This document shows, in pieces, positions 18,647 through 39,981 of a DNA stretch of 43,089 bases. The position numbers were made by a program, and so were the translations under genes. Source of the stretch: Methanothrix sp. Its GTDB lineage: Archaea; Halobacteriota; Methanosarcinia; Methanotrichales; Methanotrichaceae. The stretch spans positions 1 through 43,089 of the forward strand of contig JBAXWY010000023.1 in NCBI GenBank assembly GCA_037128175.1, read 5' to 3'. Position 1 is the first letter of the stretch. Every line of letters begins with the position of its first letter. The notes beneath the pieces were generated by a model. It saw only the letters and a list, made by a program, of their open reading frames with translations, was not told where the DNA came from and ran no database searches.

Positions 18647-19792
18647 CTAAAGCACGAGCTTCCTCTCGAAATGAGTGAGGTTATCAGAGCCGTTTTCCTT
18701 TACCACTACCAGGTCCTCCAGACGCACGCCTCCGATATCGGGGTAGTACAGCCCCGGCTCCACAGTTACCACGTGATTGACCTGCAGCTCCTCTCCGGTC
18801 TCGCTTAGCGAGGGCTTTTCGTGCACATCCAGGCCCACGCCGTGCCCGGTGGAATGGGTAAAACCGCAGCCCTCCCTCTCCGGATATCCCAGATCCAGGA
18901 AGACCGAAGAGACCCGAGAATGGACCTCCTTGCCAGAAACTCCCGCCCGGATGGCCAGAAGACCCTCGTCCTGCGCCAGACGCACCGCCTCGTAGATCTC
19001 TTTTACCTCGGGCGCGGCTTCGCCCTTGAGAACGGTGCGCGTCATATCGGCAAAGTAACGGCTGCTCTTGCTGCGCGGAAAGATATCGATGACAATGGGG
19101 GCATTGGCGGCCAGAGGGCCCGTCCCTCGCGCATGAGGGGCAACGGCCTGTGGGCCGCTGGCAACAATGGTATCCATTGCCTCGCAGCCATCCTCCAGCA
19201 GGGATATCTCAATTGCACCGCGCACCTTTTCCGAGGTAAGAGGCTGACCCTCGCGATAGAGCAATTCTCCTCGCGGCTTTGAGCTTCCGATTAGAAGGGT
19301 CGCCTGGCGCATGGCCCTCTCGCAGGCCCTCTGTGTGCATACGATGGCGTCCAGCTCCTCTTGACTCTTTATCTCCCGGAAGCGCGAGGCGGGGCTCTCC
19401 AGGACAGAGACTTCAAAATCCTGACAAAGAAGCTGGTAAAAACCGGCTGGAAAGCGAAAAGGCAGGCCCAGACGCCTTATGCCGTGACATTGCAAAAACT
19501 CCACCAAAACCCGACAATAGGCCTCTTCCGAATTTTTGCATCTCTTCAGCGTTTCCATAATCCGGTATTGGGAAGTACTCAGACATTCGTTTGCTATGGA
19601 CTCCTTTCCGGCCCGGCATAGCTCCATGGAAGAGACGAGCAGCGTGCCTTTCTCCTGGGCAAGAAAGGCGAATTTGTCGCCGGCCAGGAAGTGAGTGAGG
19701 TAATACATGTCGGCATCACAGATGCTGTCGCCGACAAATAGAAAACCGTCCAGATTATGCCGCTCTAGAAAGATCTGGATGGGAGAAGGCAC
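18647..19792 (-). CDS. Xaa-Pro peptidase (M24B family)
   Basis: IDIFP, YFADMTRT, HSTGHGVGLDVHE, TVEPGLY, GGVRLED. Confidence 0.95.
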   Translation of the reverse strand: MPSPIQIFLERHNLDGFLFVGDSICDADMYYLTHFLAGDKFAFLAQEKGTLLVSSMELCRAGKESIANECLSTSQYRIMETLKRCKNSEEAYCRVLVEFLQCHGIRRLGLPFRFPAGFYQLLCQDFEVSVLESPASRFREIKSQEELDAIVCTQRACERAMRQATLLIGSSKPRGELLYREGQPLTSEKVRGAIEISLLEDGCEAMDTIVASGPQAVAPHARGTGPLAANAPIVIDIFPRSKSSRYFADMTRTVLKGEAAPEVKEIYEAVRLAQDEGLLAIRAGVSGKEVHSRVSSVFLDLGYPEREGCGFTHSTGHGVGLDVHEKPSLSETGEELQVNHVVTVEPGLYYPDIGGVRLEDLVVVKENGSDNLTHFERKLVL

Positions 19793-19798
19793 GAATAA

Positions 19799-20557
19799 CT
19801 ACCTTCGAATGGATTTTGTCAACTCAGAGACAAAAGAGGTAACGTCTTGGCTCTTCTCCACGCCGGTTCCTGTGACAATCAGGTCTGCGCCGGCGGCTAC
19901 CAGCTCTGCCGCCGCCGCGCCGCTGCGAATCCCTCCACCAACTATGAGCAGGACGTCTCCCAGAAGCTTCTTGACCAGGGCCACCATGTTGGCAGGCACG
20001 GGAGAGTCTGCACCTGACCCCGCCTCCAGATACACCATTCTCATGCCCATGAATTTGGCAGACAGGGCATAGGCCGCCGCGAGTTCCGGCTTTCTTCGCG
20101 GTATGAGGCGAGCATCACCCACAAAACCCACTGTGCCGCCCGGCTCAATGATGATATAAGCCATGGGTATGGGCTCCAGACCGTAGCGCAGGATTAAGGG
20201 GGCACCGAGCGCCTGATTTTCTACGATATAAGCCGGGGAGCGGGAGTTTAACAGGCTCATAAAAAAGACTGCATCGGCATTTTCACATAGGCCGGCTACG
20301 CTGCTGGGAAATAGAATTACGGGCAGGTCGGTCTTCTCCCTGATCTCTCGCACCGTCTCATGAAGAAGAATTCCGGCTGCGCCTACAGAGCCGCCTACCA
20401 TGATAGCGTCCGTGCCGCCCAGATCCGCAGCCCGGGCCATTGTGCCGGCCTGCCTCGGGCTCTGGGAATCCGGATCGATCAATGTGAGATGTCCGGCGCC
20501 GCGCTCGGCTACTGCCTGAGCTAGCAGCAGCTCGACTCTGCCCCTCTCAAACATCAT
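19799..20557 (-). CDS. Geranylgeranylglyceryl phosphate synthase
   Basis: HLTLIDPD, IMVGGS, ILFP, FMSLLNS, YLEAGSGA, VGGGIR, IVTGT. Confidence 0.95.
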   Translation of the reverse strand: MMFERGRVELLLAQAVAERGAGHLTLIDPDSQSPRQAGTMARAADLGGTDAIMVGGSVGAAGILLHETVREIREKTDLPVILFPSSVAGLCENADAVFFMSLLNSRSPAYIVENQALGAPLILRYGLEPIPMAYIIIEPGGTVGFVGDARLIPRRKPELAAAYALSAKFMGMRMVYLEAGSGADSPVPANMVALVKKLLGDVLLIVGGGIRSGAAAAELVAAGADLIVTGTGVEKSQDVTSFVSELTKSIRR

Positions 20558-27645: not shown

Positions 27646-27882
27646 GATCATGATAATTATATTGGCCGTTTCCCTCATAATACTCTTTTGCATCACTTTC
27701 GCCCCGCGCGGCCATCCTTCTTCTTCTCAAGATTATATTCTCCGTTATGAGAGACAATTTATTGGGACATTATTAGCAGATCATTTGTATCTTATACATA
27801 CATTTATTAGTCCATAAAATGATTTACTGTTATCATTTAATCCAGAAAAGTATTTATTCTTACACGCATTAGGTAGCTGATA

Positions 27883-28104
27883 ATGGCAGGAGTTTTCGCA
27901 GAGCTAGGGTGGCCCTTGCACAGGAGGCCGAGAATAGAGCGACAGGTCTTTCCCCGCATCCGGGACAGAAAGGCCCTGGAGCTACAAACAGCCAAAGAGA
28001 TCCTGGAAGAGGTCTTCGGCACTACCTCGGCAGAGGTGGAGGAGATGATCCGGCTGCGCCTGGCAGAGCAAGAGGCGCTTCCAGCAAATCTAAAATATCT
28101 ATAG
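27883..28104 (+). CDS. Small hypothetical protein, copy 1 of a three-member family
   Basis: MAGV...KALELQTAKEILEEVF...EVEEMIR shared with 36781..37002 and 38125..38352. Confidence 0.8.
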   Translation: MAGVFAELGWPLHRRPRIERQVFPRIRDRKALELQTAKEILEEVFGTTSAEVEEMIRLRLAEQEALPANLKYL

Positions 28105-33581: not shown

Positions 33582-35483
33582 ATGGAGGGAGACACGTTAG
33601 AACCCAACGAGCGCCAATACTGGCTCTGGGTAACTCGTCCTGATTACTATTTAGAAGATGATGGCAGCGATCGAGAAATCCTTGATCCTACATATTGTAC
33701 GGATTCTGGAGGTTGGTGGACCTGTCATAAAGACACCAAGAAAGGTGACTTAGTATTCTTATGGCGCACTTCACCCAAGAAAGATATTGGCTATTTGATC
33801 CAGGCAGAAAGTGATGCGTATTCGATTGTTGATGATAACGATCATGGATGGGATTATGGTTGTGATTTTGAGGTTCTCTTCAAATTTGATCACCCTGTAC
33901 ATATAAAAGATCTACGTGATAGTCCTTATTTTGAAGAATGGAGCCCTTTAAGCGGCAGTTTCCAAAAAAGCAATTTTAAAATTTCGTCCGAATACTGGAA
34001 TAAACTGAATCAATTAGCTGCAGATAAAAATCCTGGATATAAGGATTTTATCGAACAAATTCAAAAGGAGCCTATAGCAGAAGGCATACGATTAGAAATA
34101 GAACTTGAGGATACATTAGCTAAAAATTTAAAAGTTTTAAAAAAATTTGGGCACGATTTAGAATTATATGTTGATCCAGCGTCAAAACTATCGGGGAGAC
34201 AACTTATTTGCAAAGGCAACGGTGGACGCATCGACTTACTTTGTTGCGATAGGACCCAAAAAAGATATGTTGTAATTGAATTGAAAAACGTACGAGCAGG
34301 TCAAAATACATTCGGACAAATATCCAACTATATGGGATGGGTTCAAAACCGAATTGCAAAAAACCTTCCAGTTATTGGGGTCGTAATTAGCAGAGGTTAT
34401 GATACAAGATTTGAGTCTGCATTAAAAATAACGGATAGAATCAGTTATATAAATGTCGATGATCTAGGATTTGCTATTGCTCCTTCTAAGAAAATACAAG
34501 AATTTATTCAAAGGCAAAAAGACACTTCCCCAGCAGGAATAAGAATCGCAAATTCCAGAGAAGCCAAATCATGGCTCAAGAAAGGAAATGCCTTCTTTGA
34601 TCAAGGAAAATATGAAGATGCCATCCCCTGCTATGACAATGTTATTGAAAAAGATCCCAATAATAAATGGGGATGGATCAATAAAGGATGGGCACTAGCG
34701 GAGCTTAAGAAGCATGGAGAAGCAATCTCGTGCTTAGATCATACCACAGAAATGTACCCAAAATCGGCAGACGTTTGGAGCAGAAAAGGGTTTGCTTTAA
34801 ACAGTTTAAATAAATTTGACGATGCGATAGTTGCTTTTGATAAGGCCATTGAGCTAAAACCTAAGTTTGCAGATGCTTGGAATGGCAAGGGCATTGTTCT
34901 TTGCAATACGGAAAAGTATGATGAAGCTATTCAAGCTTATGATAAAGCAACAATAATAAGACCAAAGTTTGCTCTGGCTTGGAGCAATAAGGGCTTGGCT
35001 TTAGCTAATCGGGGCAAATATGATGAGGCCATCAAGGCTTATGACGAGGCCATCAGATTAGATCCCAATAATGTCATGGCACGAATCAACAAGGGCGGTG
35101 CACTGGGCCAACAAGGCAAACATGACGAAGCCGTTGGAGTAATTGACGAAGCAATAGAGATCGATCCGCAGACTGCCACTCTCTGGTCTTTAAAAGGCTT
35201 GGTTCTTAACGACCAGGACAAGTATGACAAAGCCATCCAGGCCTACAATAAGGCAATCGAGTTAGATCCAGAAGACGCTGATATCTGGAACAACAAAGGC
35301 AATGCTCTCTATGACCAGGAAAAATACGATGAGGCCATACAGGCTTACGACAAGGCCATCGAACTTGATCCTAAACTCGCAGATGCATGGATGAACAAAA
35401 GCGAGGTATTCAAGTCCCTTGGGAAAAACACTGAGGCGGATACTGCCTTTGCCAAGGCCAAGGAGCTGGGGTATAAAGGCTGA
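33582..35483 (+). CDS. EVE domain + NucS-like PD-(D/E)XK nuclease + 9 TPR fusion
   Basis: YWLWVTRP..WWTC..KKGDLVFLW (EVE-like); GRIDLL..VIELK nuclease motif; nine 34-aa TPRs ending AKAKELGYKG. Confidence 0.8.
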   Translation: MEGDTLEPNERQYWLWVTRPDYYLEDDGSDREILDPTYCTDSGGWWTCHKDTKKGDLVFLWRTSPKKDIGYLIQAESDAYSIVDDNDHGWDYGCDFEVLFKFDHPVHIKDLRDSPYFEEWSPLSGSFQKSNFKISSEYWNKLNQLAADKNPGYKDFIEQIQKEPIAEGIRLEIELEDTLAKNLKVLKKFGHDLELYVDPASKLSGRQLICKGNGGRIDLLCCDRTQKRYVVIELKNVRAGQNTFGQISNYMGWVQNRIAKNLPVIGVVISRGYDTRFESALKITDRISYINVDDLGFAIAPSKKIQEFIQRQKDTSPAGIRIANSREAKSWLKKGNAFFDQGKYEDAIPCYDNVIEKDPNNKWGWINKGWALAELKKHGEAISCLDHTTEMYPKSADVWSRKGFALNSLNKFDDAIVAFDKAIELKPKFADAWNGKGIVLCNTEKYDEAIQAYDKATIIRPKFALAWSNKGLALANRGKYDEAIKAYDEAIRLDPNNVMARINKGGALGQQGKHDEAVGVIDEAIEIDPQTATLWSLKGLVLNDQDKYDKAIQAYNKAIELDPEDADIWNNKGNALYDQEKYDEAIQAYDKAIELDPKLADAWMNKSEVFKSLGKNTEADTAFAKAKELGYKG

Positions 35484-35500
35484 TCGCCCCCCAGTGCCTG

Positions 35501-35578
35501 ATAGACGCCCTTGTCTACGAGCTTTATGTGCTGACTGAAGAGGAGATCAGGATTGTGGAAGGAGTTCATGATAGATGA
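35501..35578 (+). pseudogene. Extreme 3' remnant of a Type IIG/IIL restriction-modification gene
   Basis: IDALVYELYVLTEEEIRIVEG matches the typical ID.LVYELYGLTEEEI.IVE terminus. Confidence 0.75.
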
Positions 35579-35711
35579 AGGCCAGGAGGCCGTGAATATT
35601 CGCTTCCATCGCGACCATGTGGCACAGCTCACCCAAAGCATAAGCCAGCTATCATTGAAGCCCGGAGAAGTGGGGATCAAGAAAAAAGGCTGGTGGCAAT
35701 TCTGGAAGTGA
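35568..35711 (+). CDS. 47-aa ORF or gene tail ending KKKGWWQFWK
   Basis: MIDEGQEAVNIRFHRDHVAQLTQSISQLSLKPGEVGIKKKGWWQFWK; GAAGGAG RBS; related decayed tail at 37730-37837. Confidence 0.5.
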   Translation: MIDEGQEAVNIRFHRDHVAQLTQSISQLSLKPGEVGIKKKGWWQFWK

Positions 35712-35715
35712 CAAA

Positions 35716-36546
35716 ATGGATGAAGCGGTCTTAAAGGAAAAACTAGCAGCAGCAAAAAAAGATCTGAACGAATGGGAAAAATTGAACGAGATACTAGGAG
35801 AATCAAAGCCCGGCCAGCCTGATTATCATCCATGGGCCTCTTGCTTACTATATGGGCGAAAATCAAACAAGCTTCAAGAAGGCAGAGTATACTGCAAGAA
35901 TGAGAAATATGGTAAATGTGTCTTCTTCGATAATTGCTGCAACAACGATAATTGCATGCCAAAGTGGCGAGTGCATCACAGACTTGTTCACCCCAATGAA
36001 TATCGGCGATATGTGCTCTGTAATGAATGTAAACGAATTCAAAAGCTTGTAGCCGAATCTATGGCAAATGGCATATCTGACTTGAAAAACGAATTGAATA
36101 AGCCAAATAAAACAAGAGATCTAAATGATATTGCACGAAAGCTCATCGAGATGCCCAAAGATACAAATTCATCTATAGAATCAACGATTGATGCCGATTT
36201 AGATTCAATTTTAGCAGAAGAAGAAAAAGAAGATTTATTTGAAGGAATAAAAGGCCAAAGATTTATTAATTTCTATGAACGCAATAAGAAACTACGCAAA
36301 AAAGCAATTGCGATTCATGGGTTCAAATGTATGGCTTGTGACTTCGATTTTAAGCAAAGATATGGAGCCCGAGGTGAAAATTTTATTGAAGTTCATCATC
36401 TGAAACCGGTTAGCACGCTCGAAAAAGAAACTAATGTTGACCCTAAAACAGAAATGGCCGTTGTATGTTCAAACTGCCATAGAATGATTCATCGAAAAAA
36501 AGACGAGGTACTTTCACTAGATGAGCTAAGGAAAATCATAAGGTAA
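35716..36546 (+). CDS. McrA-like HNH endonuclease with a Cys-rich N-terminal region
   Basis: YERN..LR..AI..HG..CMACDFDF..YG..G..FIEVHH..P...VCSNCHRMIH. Confidence 0.9.
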   Translation: MDEAVLKEKLAAAKKDLNEWEKLNEILGESKPGQPDYHPWASCLLYGRKSNKLQEGRVYCKNEKYGKCVFFDNCCNNDNCMPKWRVHHRLVHPNEYRRYVLCNECKRIQKLVAESMANGISDLKNELNKPNKTRDLNDIARKLIEMPKDTNSSIESTIDADLDSILAEEEKEDLFEGIKGQRFINFYERNKKLRKKAIAIHGFKCMACDFDFKQRYGARGENFIEVHHLKPVSTLEKETNVDPKTEMAVVCSNCHRMIHRKKDEVLSLDELRKIIR

Positions 36547-36610
36547 AAAAAAAACAGTGGCAATTCTGGAAATGATCGACTATAAAAGGCAACACGTGAC
36601 ATGGTTTGAC

Positions 36611-36790
36611 ATGCCCCCACAGTCTCCTCGTGGCCGTATACTTTGGATACTAGACAACCACGGCAGAAATATGGAGCGGAGCAGATTGAGAAGATGCGCA
36701 GGGATGAGACTTGCAGACATGGACCCGATCCAGGTCGCGCTGGCCCAGGGAAGGCAGGATCTCAGGCGATACGGTGAGCTTCACCCTTCC
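36611..36790 (+). pseudogene. Frameshifted small winged-helix-like gene
   Basis: RGRILWILDNHGRNMERSRLRRCAGMRLADMDPIQVALA continues as REGRISGDTVSF in another frame (shift near 36745). Confidence 0.5.
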
Positions 36791-37002
36791 AGCCAGAACT
36801 CCTGCGGCCACAGCCCGTCATTTTCGCCGCAGGCTTCTTGAGAGGAGACTTCGTCAACGCGATTCTGGATCATCTCATCCACCTCAAAGAGCCTGACCAT
36901 GAAGACCTCGGCCAGGATCTCTCTCGCGACTTCCAGCTCCATAGCCTTCTGACTCATTGCCCTCTTTTGTGGCCTGATTAACTGCTCAAGGACTCCTGCC
37001 AT
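36781..37002 (-). CDS. Small hypothetical protein, copy 2
   Basis: MAGVLEQLIRPQKRA...ELEVAREILAEVF...EVDEMIQNR...LWPQEFWLE. Confidence 0.8.
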   Translation of the reverse strand: MAGVLEQLIRPQKRAMSQKAMELEVAREILAEVFMVRLFEVDEMIQNRVDEVSSQEACGENDGLWPQEFWLEG

Positions 37003-37181
37003 AGTATGCCTATCATACGTGTAAGTTTAAGTACTTTCGCAGGAAAACAATATCAATAAACCATTTTTACATAATATAAAGTATAAATAAGATACAAAAG
37101 AGAGAATGATATCGAAACAGGCACCTCATCTATTCTCTCCGAAGTCTCGATTGCCGGAAACATCAAGAAGCTGAAGGATAA
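36960..37181. repeat. Conserved block, directly repeated at about 38310-38498 plus 39834-39865 (second copy split by IS256)
   Basis: Near-identical sequence from CCTCTTTTGTGGCCTGATT to AAGCTGAAGGATAA; diverged inverted homolog at about 27780-27893. Confidence 0.92.
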
Positions 37182-37461
37182 TGGAAGGTCACAGTTTTAT
37201 AGTTTTAATGCCCATATATTGATAGGTGAAATAGACTATGCTGTGGAACCTTGTGAAGAAGATTATAAAAATACACCTTCTCGTGATTGGCTTGATAGCT
37301 CTTCTGTGTTTCGTGAAAAAGAAGCATCACTGCTGCTGCCACAAAGAGAAAGAATAAACAACCATTTTTACCGGCTAGGAATAGGCTTAATCCTCTTCTC
37401 ATGCGTGGCGTTAAGCTTATGTTATCTCTTTACCTATTACCAAAGACGGCAGGAGAGACAA

Positions 37462-37689
37462 ATGGACGATAATAAGTTGATGAATTATATAGAGCGGTTG
37501 CGATTAGAATACGCGCCCATCGGAAAAGAGGCAGACCGCATTGAACTTTTGCAGGCAGTTGATGAGCTTGATAATCTGATCGAGGCAGAATATAAGAAAC
37601 CGGAAAGCGAGAGGCAAGATGGAGTGATAAAGTATTTTACGGTTGGTCTTATGGCACGGTTTGATCAATATTTTGCAGAGGATCGCTAG
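37462..37689 (+). CDS. Small acidic helical hypothetical protein
   Basis: ATG after AGGAGA RBS (MDDNKLMNYIERL...); frame is open further upstream, so the start is uncertain. Confidence 0.55.
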   Translation: MDDNKLMNYIERLRLEYAPIGKEADRIELLQAVDELDNLIEAEYKKPESERQDGVIKYFTVGLMARFDQYFAEDR

Positions 37690-37729
37690 CATTAGAATGA
37701 TAGATATTTGGCGGTTTTTCCGCTATTTT

Positions 37730-37837
37730 CTTTTCTGCGCCAAGCATGGCTGGTCAGCTCTCGGAGAAGATCACCCCGGCACTACCACCAAGCCAGGAAG
37801 AGGCTAAGAAAAAGGCTGGTGGCGGTTCTGGAAATAA
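37730..37837 (+). pseudogene. Decayed gene tail KITPALPPSQEEAKK.GWWRFWK
   Basis: Homologous to the end of 35568..35711; frameshift in the A-run; no start. Confidence 0.6.
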
Positions 37838-37897
37838 CCGCCTATGTATCCAAAACCTTTTTCGTTAAGATCACCCAATATTAAAGCGAGTTAAGGA

Positions 37898-38119
37898 ATG
37901 AGTAAAATGATCTTAATGAGCTTGGTCGTTAGGGCTATATTGGCAATCGTCGGCGGTTGGCTGGTATGGTTACAGTTAGGACAACTAGTCACGATGATAA
38001 ATACGCATAGCATCAACGTCCTTAGTGTGATCTTGCTAGTGGTAGGTATACTCTTGTTATTGTATGCGATCAAACCCAATTTCCTGAGGACTAAACGATG
38101 GTGGCAGATCTGGAAATAG
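37898..38119 (+). CDS. Small two-TM membrane protein ending KRWWQIWK
   Basis: Two hydrophobic helices; stop codon supplied by the fourth repeat. Confidence 0.65.
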   Translation: MSKMILMSLVVRAILAIVGGWLVWLQLGQLVTMINTHSINVLSVILLVVGILLLLYAIKPNFLRTKRWWQIWK

Positions 38120-38124
38120 GCACC

Positions 38125-38352
38125 CTATTCCAGCCAGAACTCTGCAGGCCACAACTCTTCTTCTTTAGAGACTACACCCTTAGAGCTAGCGGCTTCAAAA
38201 CGGTTCCGGATCATCTCATACACCTCTGAGATCCTGACCTTGAAGATCTCTGCTAGGATCTCCTTGGCCGTCTGGAGCTCCAAGGCCTTTGGATTGCAAT
38301 GCACCACGGCCCTCTTTTGTGGCCTGATTAGCTGCTCAAGGACTCCGGCCAT
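38125..38352 (-). CDS. Small hypothetical protein, copy 3
   Basis: MAGVLEQLIRPQKRA...KALELQTAKEILAEIF...EVYEMIRNR...LWPAEFWLE. Confidence 0.8.
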   Translation of the reverse strand: MAGVLEQLIRPQKRAVVHCNPKALELQTAKEILAEIFKVRISEVYEMIRNRFEAASSKGVVSKEEELWPAEFWLE

Positions 38353-38498
38353 AGTATGTCTATTCTAAGTGTAATGTTAAGTACTTTCGCCAGAAAACAA
38401 TATCAATAAACCATTTTTACATAATAGAAAGTATGAATAAGATATAAAAGAGAGAATGATATTGAAGCGGACCCATCATCTATTCTCTCTGAAGTCTC

Positions 38499-39825
38499 GG
38501 TAGCGTGCCATCTTTGCTGTAAATTCGCAGTGGCCCCGTATCCTGATTTAACTCACTCCTCCAAGGATAAATACCTTTTACCAGTTATCCAATCTTCGTT
38601 GATATCCATCATGATGCAAACCGCCACTCTTAGGAGCGATTGATCATTTGAGTACGCACCTGCTACGCGACTTCTTCTTTTCAGCTCTTTGTTGATTCTC
38701 TCCAGGCCGTTAGTAGTTCGGATCCTTCTCCAATGTTGTCTGGGAAATGATTTGTAATTCCAAAGATCGAATCGGAATCTATCAATTGTGGCAGCAGATT
38801 TTTTATGTCCGTTAGCTTGAAGAACAACGGCCAGTTTTTGCATCTTACTCTCATCTTCAAGAGCATCTTTTAGCATGTAAGCTACCTCTTTTTTGTCTTT
38901 CTTCGGGATGTTCTTGAGCACTGCTCTCATGAAATGAACGTTACACATCTGCCAAGATGCTCCTAGAAACGTTTTTTCGACAGCCGCTTGTATTCCTTTA
39001 TGGCCATCAGATATCACTAATTTGACGCCTTTAAGTCCTCTGGCCTTTAGGCAGTCTAAGCAACTTTCCCAACAAGATTCATCTTCACTATCCGCAACCA
39101 TAGCATTCAGAATTTCTCGATAACCATCGTCGTGAATAGCAGTGACCACAAGCAGTGCCTTGTTTATATATCGACCATCTGTTCTGACTTTGAAGTAGCT
39201 TGCATCTAAGAACAGATACGAGATAGGTTCTTCGATCGGCCTGTCCAGAAATTCTTTGACTTGTTTATCCAGCCTCTTCGCGATTCTTGAAACTTCAGAG
39301 GCAGAAATATGATCCAATCCGAATTTTGAGAATACCTTCTCGACTTTTCTCGTTGACACTCCTTCGAGATACGATTCAGCCACGGCGATTCTTACGGATT
39401 CCTCCACGCGAGAATATCTCTCGAATACTTTGGTCTTGAATGAAAACTCCCTGATTTGGGGTTTATCAAGCTCTATTTCCCCAGGGATGGTCTTAAGCAA
39501 TCGCGGTCTCGTTCCATTGCGATGTGCTCTTCTCTTGCCGGTGCGTTCGTAGGGTCTCGCCTGGATTTGCTTTTCAGCCTCAAAGCGCATTACCTCATTT
39601 AGGTAACCTGTCGTTAACTTTATCATCGCCTCTTTTGGATCGACAAGATAATCTTCTGCTAAGTCCGATACATTCATGGCTCTGTCTCCCTCTTGAGTTT
39701 GACGACTTGGGGATACAGGGCTATCATACACCAAGAAGTAATAACTTGCTGTTATCTCGTTCACGGCAAGTCGTTTCTTGATGCTTAATACTGCGGCTAT
39801 TTTACATCAAAACTGGCACGCAACC
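38499..39825 (-). mobile_element. IS256-family insertion sequence, 1327 bp, with 8-bp target site duplication
   Basis: TSD GAAGTCTC at 38491-38498 and 39826-39833; IRs GGTAGCGTGCCATCTTTGCTGTAAA and GGTTGCGTGCCAGTTTTGATGTAAA; empty site visible at 37141. Confidence 0.97.
38553..39677 (-). CDS. IS256 (mutator) transposase
   Basis: RNG.R.R, GVSTRKV, LFLDASY.KVR, ISDGHKG, WQMCNVHF, IRTTNGLERINKELKRR. Confidence 0.96.
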   Translation of the reverse strand: MNVSDLAEDYLVDPKEAMIKLTTGYLNEVMRFEAEKQIQARPYERTGKRRAHRNGTRPRLLKTIPGEIELDKPQIREFSFKTKVFERYSRVEESVRIAVAESYLEGVSTRKVEKVFSKFGLDHISASEVSRIAKRLDKQVKEFLDRPIEEPISYLFLDASYFKVRTDGRYINKALLVVTAIHDDGYREILNAMVADSEDESCWESCLDCLKARGLKGVKLVISDGHKGIQAAVEKTFLGASWQMCNVHFMRAVLKNIPKKDKKEVAYMLKDALEDESKMQKLAVVLQANGHKKSAATIDRFRFDLWNYKSFPRQHWRRIRTTNGLERINKELKRRSRVAGAYSNDQSLLRVAVCIMMDINEDWITGKRYLSLEE

Positions 39826-39981
39826 GAAGTCTCGATTGCCGAAAACATCAATAAGCTGAAGGATAAGGGAGAACTAGAATAGGAGTAGCGATGTTTGCGC
39901 TACAGCTATCACGCACCGCCCAAAAATCCTTAGATAAAAAATAGAAAGATTTATATACGTTTTAATCTATGTTATTGAGAT

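Follow-up and report, generated by a model that had tools for sequence, protein, structure and literature searches.

A cassette-like array in a Methanothrix contig is probably a row of genes with a shared C-terminal tail in a decayed, virus-derived island

We analysed a stretch of 43,089 nucleotides (nt) from a Methanothrix genome (assembly GCA_037128175.1, contig JBAXWY010000023.1, positions 1 to 43,089 of the forward strand; hereafter the window), in which a short motif encoding the peptide WWQFWK recurs around small genes between positions 35568 and 39870. An earlier note on this DNA had proposed that the motif acts as an attachment core at which single genes are captured, in the manner of an integron. 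Our analysis leads to a different reading: the apparent cassette array is probably a row of tail-bearing genes in a decayed, virus-derived island and not an integron-like capture system. The four repeats would then be the last codons of genes with a common C-terminal peptide, ...K-(G/S)-W-W-(Q/R)-(F/I)-W-K-stop, which we call the tail. Throughout, C denotes contigs of the source genome, G genomes of Methanotrichaceae, L fetched loci and X public runs. The source genome comprises 98 contigs, of which C23 is the window; other copies of the motif lie on C11 (two), C16, C20, C22 and C25 (two).

The window holds four direct copies of a 21-nt motif arranged as two pairs, and re-reading confirmed every coordinate given for them earlier. 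The pattern TGGTGGCRRWTCTGGAARTRR matches without mismatch at 35691, 37817 and 38099 and with two mismatches at 36555, compared with a shuffle mean of 0.07, and four matches were reached in none of 100 shuffles. The 15-mer GTGGCAATTCTGGAA is identical at 35693-35707 and 36557-36571. In the first pair, the ATG of an HNH endonuclease gene (35716) lies 4 nt past copy 1 and its TAA (36544-36546) 8 nt short of copy 2. In the second, a membrane open reading frame (ORF) of 73 amino acids (aa; 37898-38119) does take its last codons and stop from the repeat, terminating in RTKRWWQIWK within copy 4. Behind the second repeat of each pair stands, as had been described, the same small gene, denoted MAGV, with an adjoining block; these are duplicated as repeats of 196 nt at 89% identity and 95 nt at 76%. 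The segment 37139-37185 recurs at 39824-39870 because an IS256-family element splits unit 2. Unit 1 accordingly reads, in order, a remnant of a ribbon-helix-helix plus coiled-coil (RHH-cc) gene, the HNH gene with its tail lost, a broken winged-helix-like (wHTH) gene and a convergent MAGV; unit 2 reads a 156-aa ORF, a frameshifted RHH-cc remnant, the tailed membrane gene, a convergent MAGV and the IS256 element. Rfam, at the gathering threshold, and ARAGORN gave no match within the window.

Across the family, the motif behaves as the coding end of genes. We collected 73 distinct Methanotrichaceae copies from the fetched loci, which were chosen by the motif and are not an unbiased sample; these copies read WW(Q/R)(F/I)WK. 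A stop follows the sixth codon directly in 56 of the 73 (TGA 30, TAA 15, TAG 11). The third codon is CAG in 32 copies, CAA in 21 and CGG (Arg) in 17, the sixth (Lys) codon is AAA in 41 and AAG in 24, and the residue at position -2 relative to the motif is Lys in 55. Intact tailed ORFs of at least 65 aa number 22 and fall into 14 clusters when the last 22 residues are masked, three singletons among the 14 looking like spurious ORFs; at least ten unrelated types of protein end in the motif. The clusters include RHH plus coiled-coil proteins, a two-helix membrane protein of 67-79 aa, a family with two transmembrane helices (2-TM), several single-pass proteins (in all, several families with 1-3 TM helices) and a 279-aa TPR protein with a body resembling that of the window's own TPR protein, and a membrane helix is predicted in 14 of the 22 ORFs. 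With this coding signature of stops, synonymous Gln and Lys variation and at least ten protein types, the motif is a coding C-terminal peptide plus a predicted ribosome-binding site and not a non-coding att core.

The gene that had seemed to be captured between two sites is the HNH gene (35716..36546, plus strand), which encodes 276 aa. Its N-terminal half is rich in Cys, and an HNH domain lies C-terminally (PF01844, E 2.1e-5, 25 bits against a cut-off of 21.4; PHROG HNH families down to 1.3e-13). EVE-HNH fusions in G002 and G033 match the C-terminal half at 76% and 56% identity, respectively. The G002 homologue ends AGG GTA AAA TAA (..IIRVK and stop). In the window the gene ends AGG-TAAAAAAAAAACAGTGG, one G short of G002: AGG TAA, then nine further A and CAGTGGCAATTCTGGAAATGA. 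The -1 frame gives ..IIRVKKKQWQFWK and a stop. Because the -1 frame restores a tail and one G is missing relative to G002, copy 2 is the HNH gene's own, slightly degenerate tail (VKKKQWQFWK and stop, 36543..36575, plus strand, delimited by the comparison with G002), joined to the body exactly at the stop of the untailed relative. By this comparison the HNH gene was once tailed and a later deletion of 1 nt severed the tail, which argues against capture of the gene between two sites. Contigs of the independent run X3 are identical to the window over 36215-37011, so the lesion is not an error of a single assembly.

Copies 1 and 3 are likewise the 3' ends of genes, as the earlier note had it for the first repeat of each pair, but its reading GWWRFWK at copy 3 requires a -1 shift. 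Copy 1 (35691..35711, plus strand, WWQFWK plus TGA, located by pattern match) closes a 52-codon ORF (35553..35711, plus strand) that ends in ...HVAQLTQSISQLSLKPGEVGIKKKGWWQFWK and a stop and that homologue matches identify as the 3' remnant of an RHH + coiled-coil + tail gene. Its 52-aa product aligns with the C-terminal portion of 134 proteins that are 99-256 aa long; identity is 62-94%, and 60-98% of the query is covered. All 12 relatives that were read combine an RHH region at the N-terminus with a coiled coil that varies in length, and they end in ..FLRGHVAQLTQSISQLSLKPGEEEIKKKGWWQFW(K/R), or KKGWWQFW(K/R)(R). Pfam RHH_1 is found on a full-length relative (E 1.2e-5), and several of the 134 proteins are annotated with it; Pfam gave no match in the window's 52-aa ORF, and no RHH domain is left in the window. 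The second remnant (37746..37837, plus strand; MAGQLSEKITPALPPSQEEAKKK / GWWRFWK and stop, copy 3 occupying 37817-37837) is frameshifted in a run of five A: the zero frame at copy 3 reads ...AKKKAGGGSGNN, and GWWRFWK is reached by a -1 shift in this run. It is of a sister type, ..SQLSEKITPALPPSQEEAKxK.WWRFWK, and its counterpart in a 164-aa protein is ..HLSQLSEKITPALPPSQEEAKAKHWWRFWK. Behind 37808, runs X8 and X9 have contigs with one extra A. Because only the C-terminal 25-50 codons remain in both copies, the window holds fragments of RHH-cc genes and not members of the family. A family-alignment search with one genome per species gave 31 loci, 10 spanning the full protein and 21 confined to its C-terminal part.

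Full-length genes of this kind occur in viruses. The RHH-cc-tail gene is found complete in nine IMG/VR contigs, near capsid, terminase and baseplate genes (ORFs were scanned in three). On L085, a capsid protein gene and a GNAT gene lie directly upstream of the RHH-cc-tail gene; L089 carries the terminase large subunit and baseplate J on the same contig; and on L086, as in genome G017, a PemK toxin gene is directly upstream. One viral contig (L086/L094) has the order PemK, RHH-cc-tail gene, 101-aa ORF and convergent MAGV, the same layout as in units 1 and 2 of the window. MAGV occurs in four IMG/VR contigs, three of which lack the RHH-cc gene; conversely, over the stretch read, no MAGV accompanies the RHH-cc gene in eight further viral contigs. 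The exact DNA motif is present in at least 120 IMG/VR stretches, and in the 80 loci that were read (L098-L177) a stop follows it directly in 14, compared with about 4 expected (3/64). Viral proteins ending in (K/R)(K/R)WWQFWK and a stop include an ankyrin-repeat protein, a 172-aa MerR-HTH plus coiled-coil protein and small ORFs of 75-84 aa (examples of loci with a terminal tail are L131, L140, L159, L108, L125 and L145), and a viral transglycosylase terminates in ..WWQFWKHW. The peptide also occurs internally, as ..(R/K)(R/K)WWQFWKP.., in at least 12 other loci (for example L114, L118, L121, L139 and L173), whose proteins belong to no Pfam family.

Among cellular genomes, TGGTGGCRNWTYTGGAAR is present in 36 of 105 genomes of the family, with 79 matches compared with one for a reversed-pattern control. 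In other families of the phylum, the motif occurs in 10 of 388 genomes, the control giving 2; two of these families have the peptide near protein ends, as ..KVKKWWQFWKRKATIS and ..SYKKWWQFWKK, each before a stop, and also as KKWWQFWK(R)K, with Phe often encoded by TTT. A match in G058 (WWHIWK) that is not at the end of an ORF is probably due to chance, and most internal matches in other families look like chance as well. Many genomes have co-oriented arrays of two to four copies; 11 of 12 clusters examined lie on a single strand, the exception being G003:C141. On C11 of the source genome, a 310-codon ORF (19028-19960, minus strand) opens with a tail remnant that has lost its stop (MPNESLQSQEEARTKNWWQFWK) and itself stops two in-frame stops ahead of a degenerate tail, WWQYWKRF; the same state is seen in three genomes of the genus (compare L018 and L036).

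The end of the tail also explains why genes follow it so closely. The source genome has no assembled 16S rRNA, and we read the anti-Shine-Dalgarno sequence from a genome of the same genus, in which the 16S rRNA 3' end ..GGATCACCTCCT gives the consensus Shine-Dalgarno sequence AGGAGGTGATCC. The tail end TGG-AAG-TGA(TC), that is GGAAGTGA(TC), comes near to this consensus; in the window the site lies at 35703-35711, ahead of the HNH ATG at 35716. The tight bracketing, with cargo beginning 4 nt past the repeat, arises because the tail end doubles as the predicted Shine-Dalgarno site of the next gene. Fifty-four tails have an immediate stop and enough sequence downstream, and in 15 of them an ORF of at least 50 aa starts within 20 nt. 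The ending AAG-TGA occurs in 9 of these 15 compared with 2 of the 39 others (Fisher P = 4e-5, a value that overstates the case as the copies are related). Since AAG-TGA is used mainly ahead of a close start, the synonymous choice at the tail end is tied to the next gene; where tails ending in AAA-TAA or CGG-TAA precede a gene, a separate GGAGG-like site is found there. The last codons of the tail are thus predicted to act as the ribosome-binding site of a close downstream gene.

In unit 1, a small wHTH-like pseudogene reported earlier proved to be a frameshifted version (36571..36841, plus strand) of intact genes of 68-75 aa elsewhere, among them L097 3201-3428 (75 aa), L061 and L010. Its ATG overlaps the TGA of copy 2 (ATGA), its C-terminal part runs on in another frame (ORF 36711-36896), and one X9 contig is 1 nt shorter at 36744. 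Upstream of copy 1 lies a putative C-terminal fragment of a restriction/modification (RM)-type gene (35498..35578, plus strand, read from the sequence as LIDALVYELYVLTEEEIRIVEGVHDR and a stop). The segment 35496-35562 recurs at no fewer than 12 places in the source genome (C2, C3, C13, C15, C16, C30, C55 and C86) with the recurrent peptide ..LVYELYxLTEEEIRIVEG, on C13 behind an EVE...HNH open frame, and the end of the RM-type peptide also precedes a tail fragment in G057 (VEGVQDR and stop) and G036 (...YELCGLTKEEIRIVEG). Further upstream, 33582-35483 encodes a 633-aa protein that has an EVE-like N-terminus in common with the EVE-HNH fusions of G002 and G033, a YhcG-type PD-(D/E)xK nuclease region that scores 28.5 bits and so misses the Pfam cut-off of 32.5, and at least nine TPR repeats; a TPR relative of it in G002 bears a WWQFWK tail.

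In unit 2, the 156-aa ORF (37219..37689, plus strand, family unassigned) is 92% identical to the syntenic gene in G095. The 73-aa protein (37898..38119, plus strand, from ORF reading) has two membrane helices and the intact tail of copy 4, which begins 10 residues past the second helix, after RTKR. Further distinct copies of this membrane gene, each behind a tail fragment, are found in G018, G029 and G057 (two). Four of the five distinct copies have the Ile variant of the tail (ATC) and the G029 copy has Phe (TTC), the neighbouring tails being TTC. Because the membrane gene retains ATC beside TTC tails, adjacent tails have not been homogenized; and because the pair of tail and membrane gene occurs in at least four genomes and the gene keeps its own Ile variant, it is no recent capture. 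An IS256-family insertion sequence (38500..39825, minus strand; transposase 38553-39764, Pfam Transposase_mut, E 7.8e-99) is flanked by a 9-bp target duplication, GAAGTCTCG, at 38491-38499 and 39826-39834; the Mutator-type DDE transposase and the duplication, of 8-9 bp in this family, both place it there. The joint 38490>39826, free of the element, occurs in contigs of runs X3 and X7, for which the C53 paralogue may account.

MAGV closes both units from the opposite strand. Copy 1 (73 aa, 36781..37002, minus strand, from ORF reading) is convergent on the array, and the stop of copy 2 (75 aa, 38125..38352, minus strand) lies 5 nt from that of the membrane gene. Paralogue alignment defines a conserved upstream block, presumed to be promoter and leader, at 37003..37190 for copy 1 and at 38353..38499 for copy 2, where it resumes at 39826-39938 past the insertion sequence; in C53 it is uninterrupted. 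About 100 nt next to the MAGV ATG are kept in all seven aligned paralogues (window 37003-37100 and 38353-38450, C23 near 27780-27883, C22, C53, C10 and C28) and are better conserved than the ORF itself; this pattern would suit a promoter followed by a long leader, or else a regulatory RNA. The MAGV family comprises 718 proteins without a Pfam match or an informative name (most are unnamed or 'hypothetical protein'), with about ten paralogues in the source genome and 1-17 per genome in 77 of the 105 family genomes. AlphaFold2 (AF2) predicts a two-helix hairpin at residues 21-57 with modest confidence (mean pLDDT 68). Searches of NCBIfam, Pfam and PHROGs returned no match for MAGV, the 73-aa membrane protein, the 156-aa ORF or the 2-TM 'INGI' family.

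The surroundings of full-length RHH-cc-tail genes add some detail on this family. A PemK/MazF-type toxin gene lies directly upstream in L086 (5560-6495) and L067 (3310-4436), and a GNAT acetyltransferase gene in L085 (4077-5277); downstream of a toxin or GNAT gene, the RHH-cc-tail protein may be an unusual antitoxin or a regulator. Full or partial RHH-coiled-coil-tail genes also occur in bins labelled Paludibacter, Treponemataceae, Bacteroidales and Eubacteriales (L222, L224-L227 and L236), which may be mis-binned viral or archaeal contigs or may reflect a wider host range. The ESM Atlas gives look-alikes of the protein that serve only as leads: a cluster without a name that has some viral members, and RHH proteins of the NikA-like/DUF536 kind.

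We propose that the locus is a twice-copied and decayed piece of an accessory-gene region that is also found in tailed viruses of Methanothrix. The ancestral region would have been an operon-like row of small genes, with the RHH + coiled-coil + tail gene first and a convergent MAGV with its own promoter block last. In unit 1, the first gene would have been cut down to its last 40-50 codons, the HNH tail severed by the 1-nt deletion and the winged-helix gene frameshifted. Unit 2 would retain the 3' remnant with its frameshift in the A-run and the intact tailed membrane gene, with IS256 inserted in the upstream block of MAGV. Tail DNA would be read twice, as peptide-coding sequence and, where a gene follows closely, as a Shine-Dalgarno site. 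Differences in content presumably stem from ordinary homologous recombination, deletion and decay among tail copies of 20-60 nt and among MAGV copies.

Such differences do occur, and both empty and alternative alleles, which the earlier note had suggested looking for, exist. At the syntenic place, where the window has the HNH unit (HNH plus wHTH), G095 holds a TPR fragment, an orphan tail and a tailed 2-TM gene of 112 aa, together with MAGV (86% identical) and the 156-aa ORF; G036 has the RM-type fragment, a tail remnant, tailed genes of 154 and 96 aa and then MAGV. Chromosomal copies show four different contents between the RHH-cc end and MAGV. Relative to C22, the 282-nt membrane-gene unit has a 26-nt motif on both sides. 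Breakpoints also lie elsewhere, for example within MAGV at 36854. Ordinary homologous recombination plus decay is enough to account for these differences without dedicated machinery.

Several observations weigh against our interpretation. An empty form, in which a tail remnant abuts MAGV, is present in C22 and in one run X8 contig. A convergent MAGV lies within 300 nt of 11 of the 73 copies, in eight cases at 24 nt or less, behind different genes. Similarity between differing cargo contexts begins at the tail, as a crossover site would give. The codon for Phe or Ile ends in C in 76 of the 79 family matches, whereas TTT encodes 69 of 253 Phe before Trp in long ORFs of the source genome; a codon so nearly fixed means either that tail DNA has recently co-descended, by grafting from gene to gene, or that it is under some constraint at the DNA level. 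In our reading, the tail DNA of the family probably has a common origin and has spread from one gene to another, which the HNH junction illustrates. Intact motifs without an upstream ORF exist (for example C16 9360, L014, L031 and L026-2139). At least eight times, a lesion in the last 45 nt separates a long ORF (110-311 codons) from an intact tail, a striking concentration beside the tail that exceeds the expectation of random decay. Finally, nearly all of the genomes compared are metagenome bins, the loci were selected by the motif and the copies are related.

In a more far-reaching reading, the tail is a portable module that recombination grafts onto unrelated genes entering a virus-borne slot, serving at once as docking peptide, ribosome-binding site and exchange homology. 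The HNH tail, joined exactly at an untailed relative's stop, would be a case of such grafting; as a whole we think the reading unlikely. That tails are preferred crossover points is, in its broad form, equally doubtful.

Integron-like capture, with the 18-21-nt tail as the core site of a site-specific system and its recombinase encoded elsewhere, we consider improbable. The co-oriented arrays, the alternative cargo of G095 and G036, the empty forms, the 26-nt motif bounding the 282-nt unit and the almost fixed TTC codon are what it would predict, but the motif behaves as coding sequence with three different stops and synonymous variation, the HNH gene bore a tail of its own and the pair of tail and membrane gene is kept in four genomes. 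The attC site of integrons is an imperfect palindrome of 55-140 nt, and of the 18 inverted pairs found between 33000 and 43089 not one brackets a copy of the motif on the scale of a cassette. Linkage to tyrosine recombinases, suggested earlier as a test, did not emerge in the source genome: a whole-genome search with PF00589 gave six matches, on C5, C6, C7, C28 and C29, and none on the motif-bearing C11, C16, C20, C22, C23 and C25, in an assembly of 98 contigs that leaves linkage across contig ends possible. A tyrosine recombinase lies 1.4 kb upstream of the G017 array and another near the HNH gene of G002. The statement that the window has no recombinase holds for PF00589 on the contig (serine recombinases were not searched) but not for the DDE transposase of IS256 inside the interval. 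The excision joint 35708>36572 that circular forms would leave is absent among the 15 joints listed from four runs, as read from Logan contigs, which hide rare forms; the joints 35705>37782 (X3 and X7) and 37835>40133 (X9) have sides of 26-27 letters, and we took them for paralogous tail copies and not for excision. Integrons have been reported in archaeal genomes (bioRxiv 10.1101/2022.02.06.479319 / PMC9668308). Like integron cassettes, the genes here are small, co-oriented and close-packed, have a common short 3' element and vary in content between strains; unlike them, the shared element of the locus is 18-21 nt of coding sequence plus a stop, no integrase gene is near and the HNH gene merely lost its tail. 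The locus is not a member of the integron family.

We consider it likewise improbable that MAGV with its upstream block (about 0.5 kb) moves as a module of its own and inserts beside tails, the tail being its target. Its copy number in the source genome and across the family, the conservation of the block above that of the ORF and the position of its stop 8-24 nt from a tail stop behind eight different genes would suit such an element. However, most MAGV copies of the source genome (C53, C10, C28, C24, C49, C61 and C29) have no adjoining tail, no terminal repeats or target duplications were seen, no recognizable transposase or recombinase is encoded, and a viral contig shows the same convergent arrangement.

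About as improbable is a cis-acting translational element, in which the Trp-rich nascent peptide would pause the ribosome and so control the downstream gene. The motif sits exactly at the stop in most copies, the next start lies within 20 nt or overlaps in 18 of the 54 tails, the tail end doubles as a Shine-Dalgarno site and orphan tails are retained ahead of genes. Yet the motif also ends long ordinary proteins (the 279-aa TPR protein, proteins of 247 and 211 aa and the viral ankyrin and MerR-type proteins), no ORF begins within 120 nt of 19 of the 54 tails, the motif is followed by 1-6 residues outside the family, and stalling is purely hypothetical.

Programmed frameshifting or slippage in the A/G-rich linker that toggles between tailed and untailed protein is scarcely credible: the long ORFs of HNH, L026-2646, L021, L063, L035 and L032/L055 are out of frame with their tail by 1 nt, one family has been severed from its tail independently in G017 and a viral contig and the A-run at 37808 varies in length, but the shifts run both ways (-1 in HNH, L026-2646, L035, L061 and the pair L032/L055; +1 in L021, L063 and L012), at differing and mostly non-slippery sites, with two in-frame stops instead in C11, and because direction varies in this manner, decay at an A/G-rich, stop-prone linker is favoured over programmed recoding.

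If the repeats are the ends of a shared peptide, as we prefer, its role may be to attach the proteins that carry it either to the membrane, on the cytoplasmic side, or to a partner common to them. With three Trp, one Phe or Ile and Lys or Arg on its flanks, it is similar to membrane anchors that seek the interface, such as Trp-rich peptides and the helices of MinD and FtsA, and the tail is, as in amphipathic tails, a short basic and aromatic extreme C-terminus on diverse proteins (three Trp, one Phe/Ile and Lys at -2). Placed after RTKR, the tail of the 73-aa protein would lie on the cytoplasmic side, and that of the RHH and MerR-type proteins would hold a DNA-binding protein at the membrane. 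Membrane docking is nonetheless a tentative suggestion, to which we give somewhat less than even credence, and a common protein partner would be an equally simple reading.

Comparison with other well-known systems places the tail and its locus further. As with the C-terminal membrane-targeting helices of MinD and FtsA, it is a short, basic and aromatic extreme C-terminus on unrelated proteins, including soluble DNA-binding ones; unlike them, it has only about 6-10 residues, is richer in Trp and occurs also on proteins that already have membrane helices, and its lipid binding is putative. With PGF-CTERM/archaeosortase and PEP-CTERM/exosortase it has in common that one short C-terminal signature is found on many unrelated proteins of one lineage, but their tripartite signal of motif, hydrophobic helix and basic tail is missing, since the stop mostly follows the motif directly; no cognate processing enzyme was found, no systematic search having been made. 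Like the accessory hotspots of P2 phages and P4 satellites, the locus offers a variable slot between two conserved genes, which also occur in viral contigs, and its cargo includes a nuclease and toxin-antitoxin-type neighbours. Unlike them, the slot is chromosomal, decayed and duplicated, its left flank is the last 25-50 codons of a gene and several cargo genes have the C-terminal peptide of that flank. Finally, orphan modules of CdiA-CT and Rhs proteins similarly occur as tandem fragments that keep a junction motif beside complete genes and provide homology for module exchange, whereas here it is the extreme C-terminus that is conserved and the entire protein upstream of it that varies, and no toxin/immunity pairing is seen in the window.

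Methanothrix is among the main acetate-consuming methane producers, and to our knowledge its viruses and mobile islands are almost uncharacterized. The tail as such is undescribed as far as the literature that we could search shows. For readings made from sequence alone, the locus is a warning that direct repeats bracketing genes can closely mimic attachment sites when they are coding ends that several genes have in common and that also act as ribosome-binding sites. If tails are indeed exchange points, they would provide a simple, recombinase-free route to variable gene arrays, and if they form a portable module, the array would be an integrase-free functional analogue of an integron array, with (K/R)(K/R)WWQFWK on ankyrin, MerR-type and transglycosylase proteins as a widespread, undescribed viral protein tag. 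That DNA-binding, membrane, TPR and nuclease proteins of the mobilome have this tail in common points to a shared destination or a shared partner.

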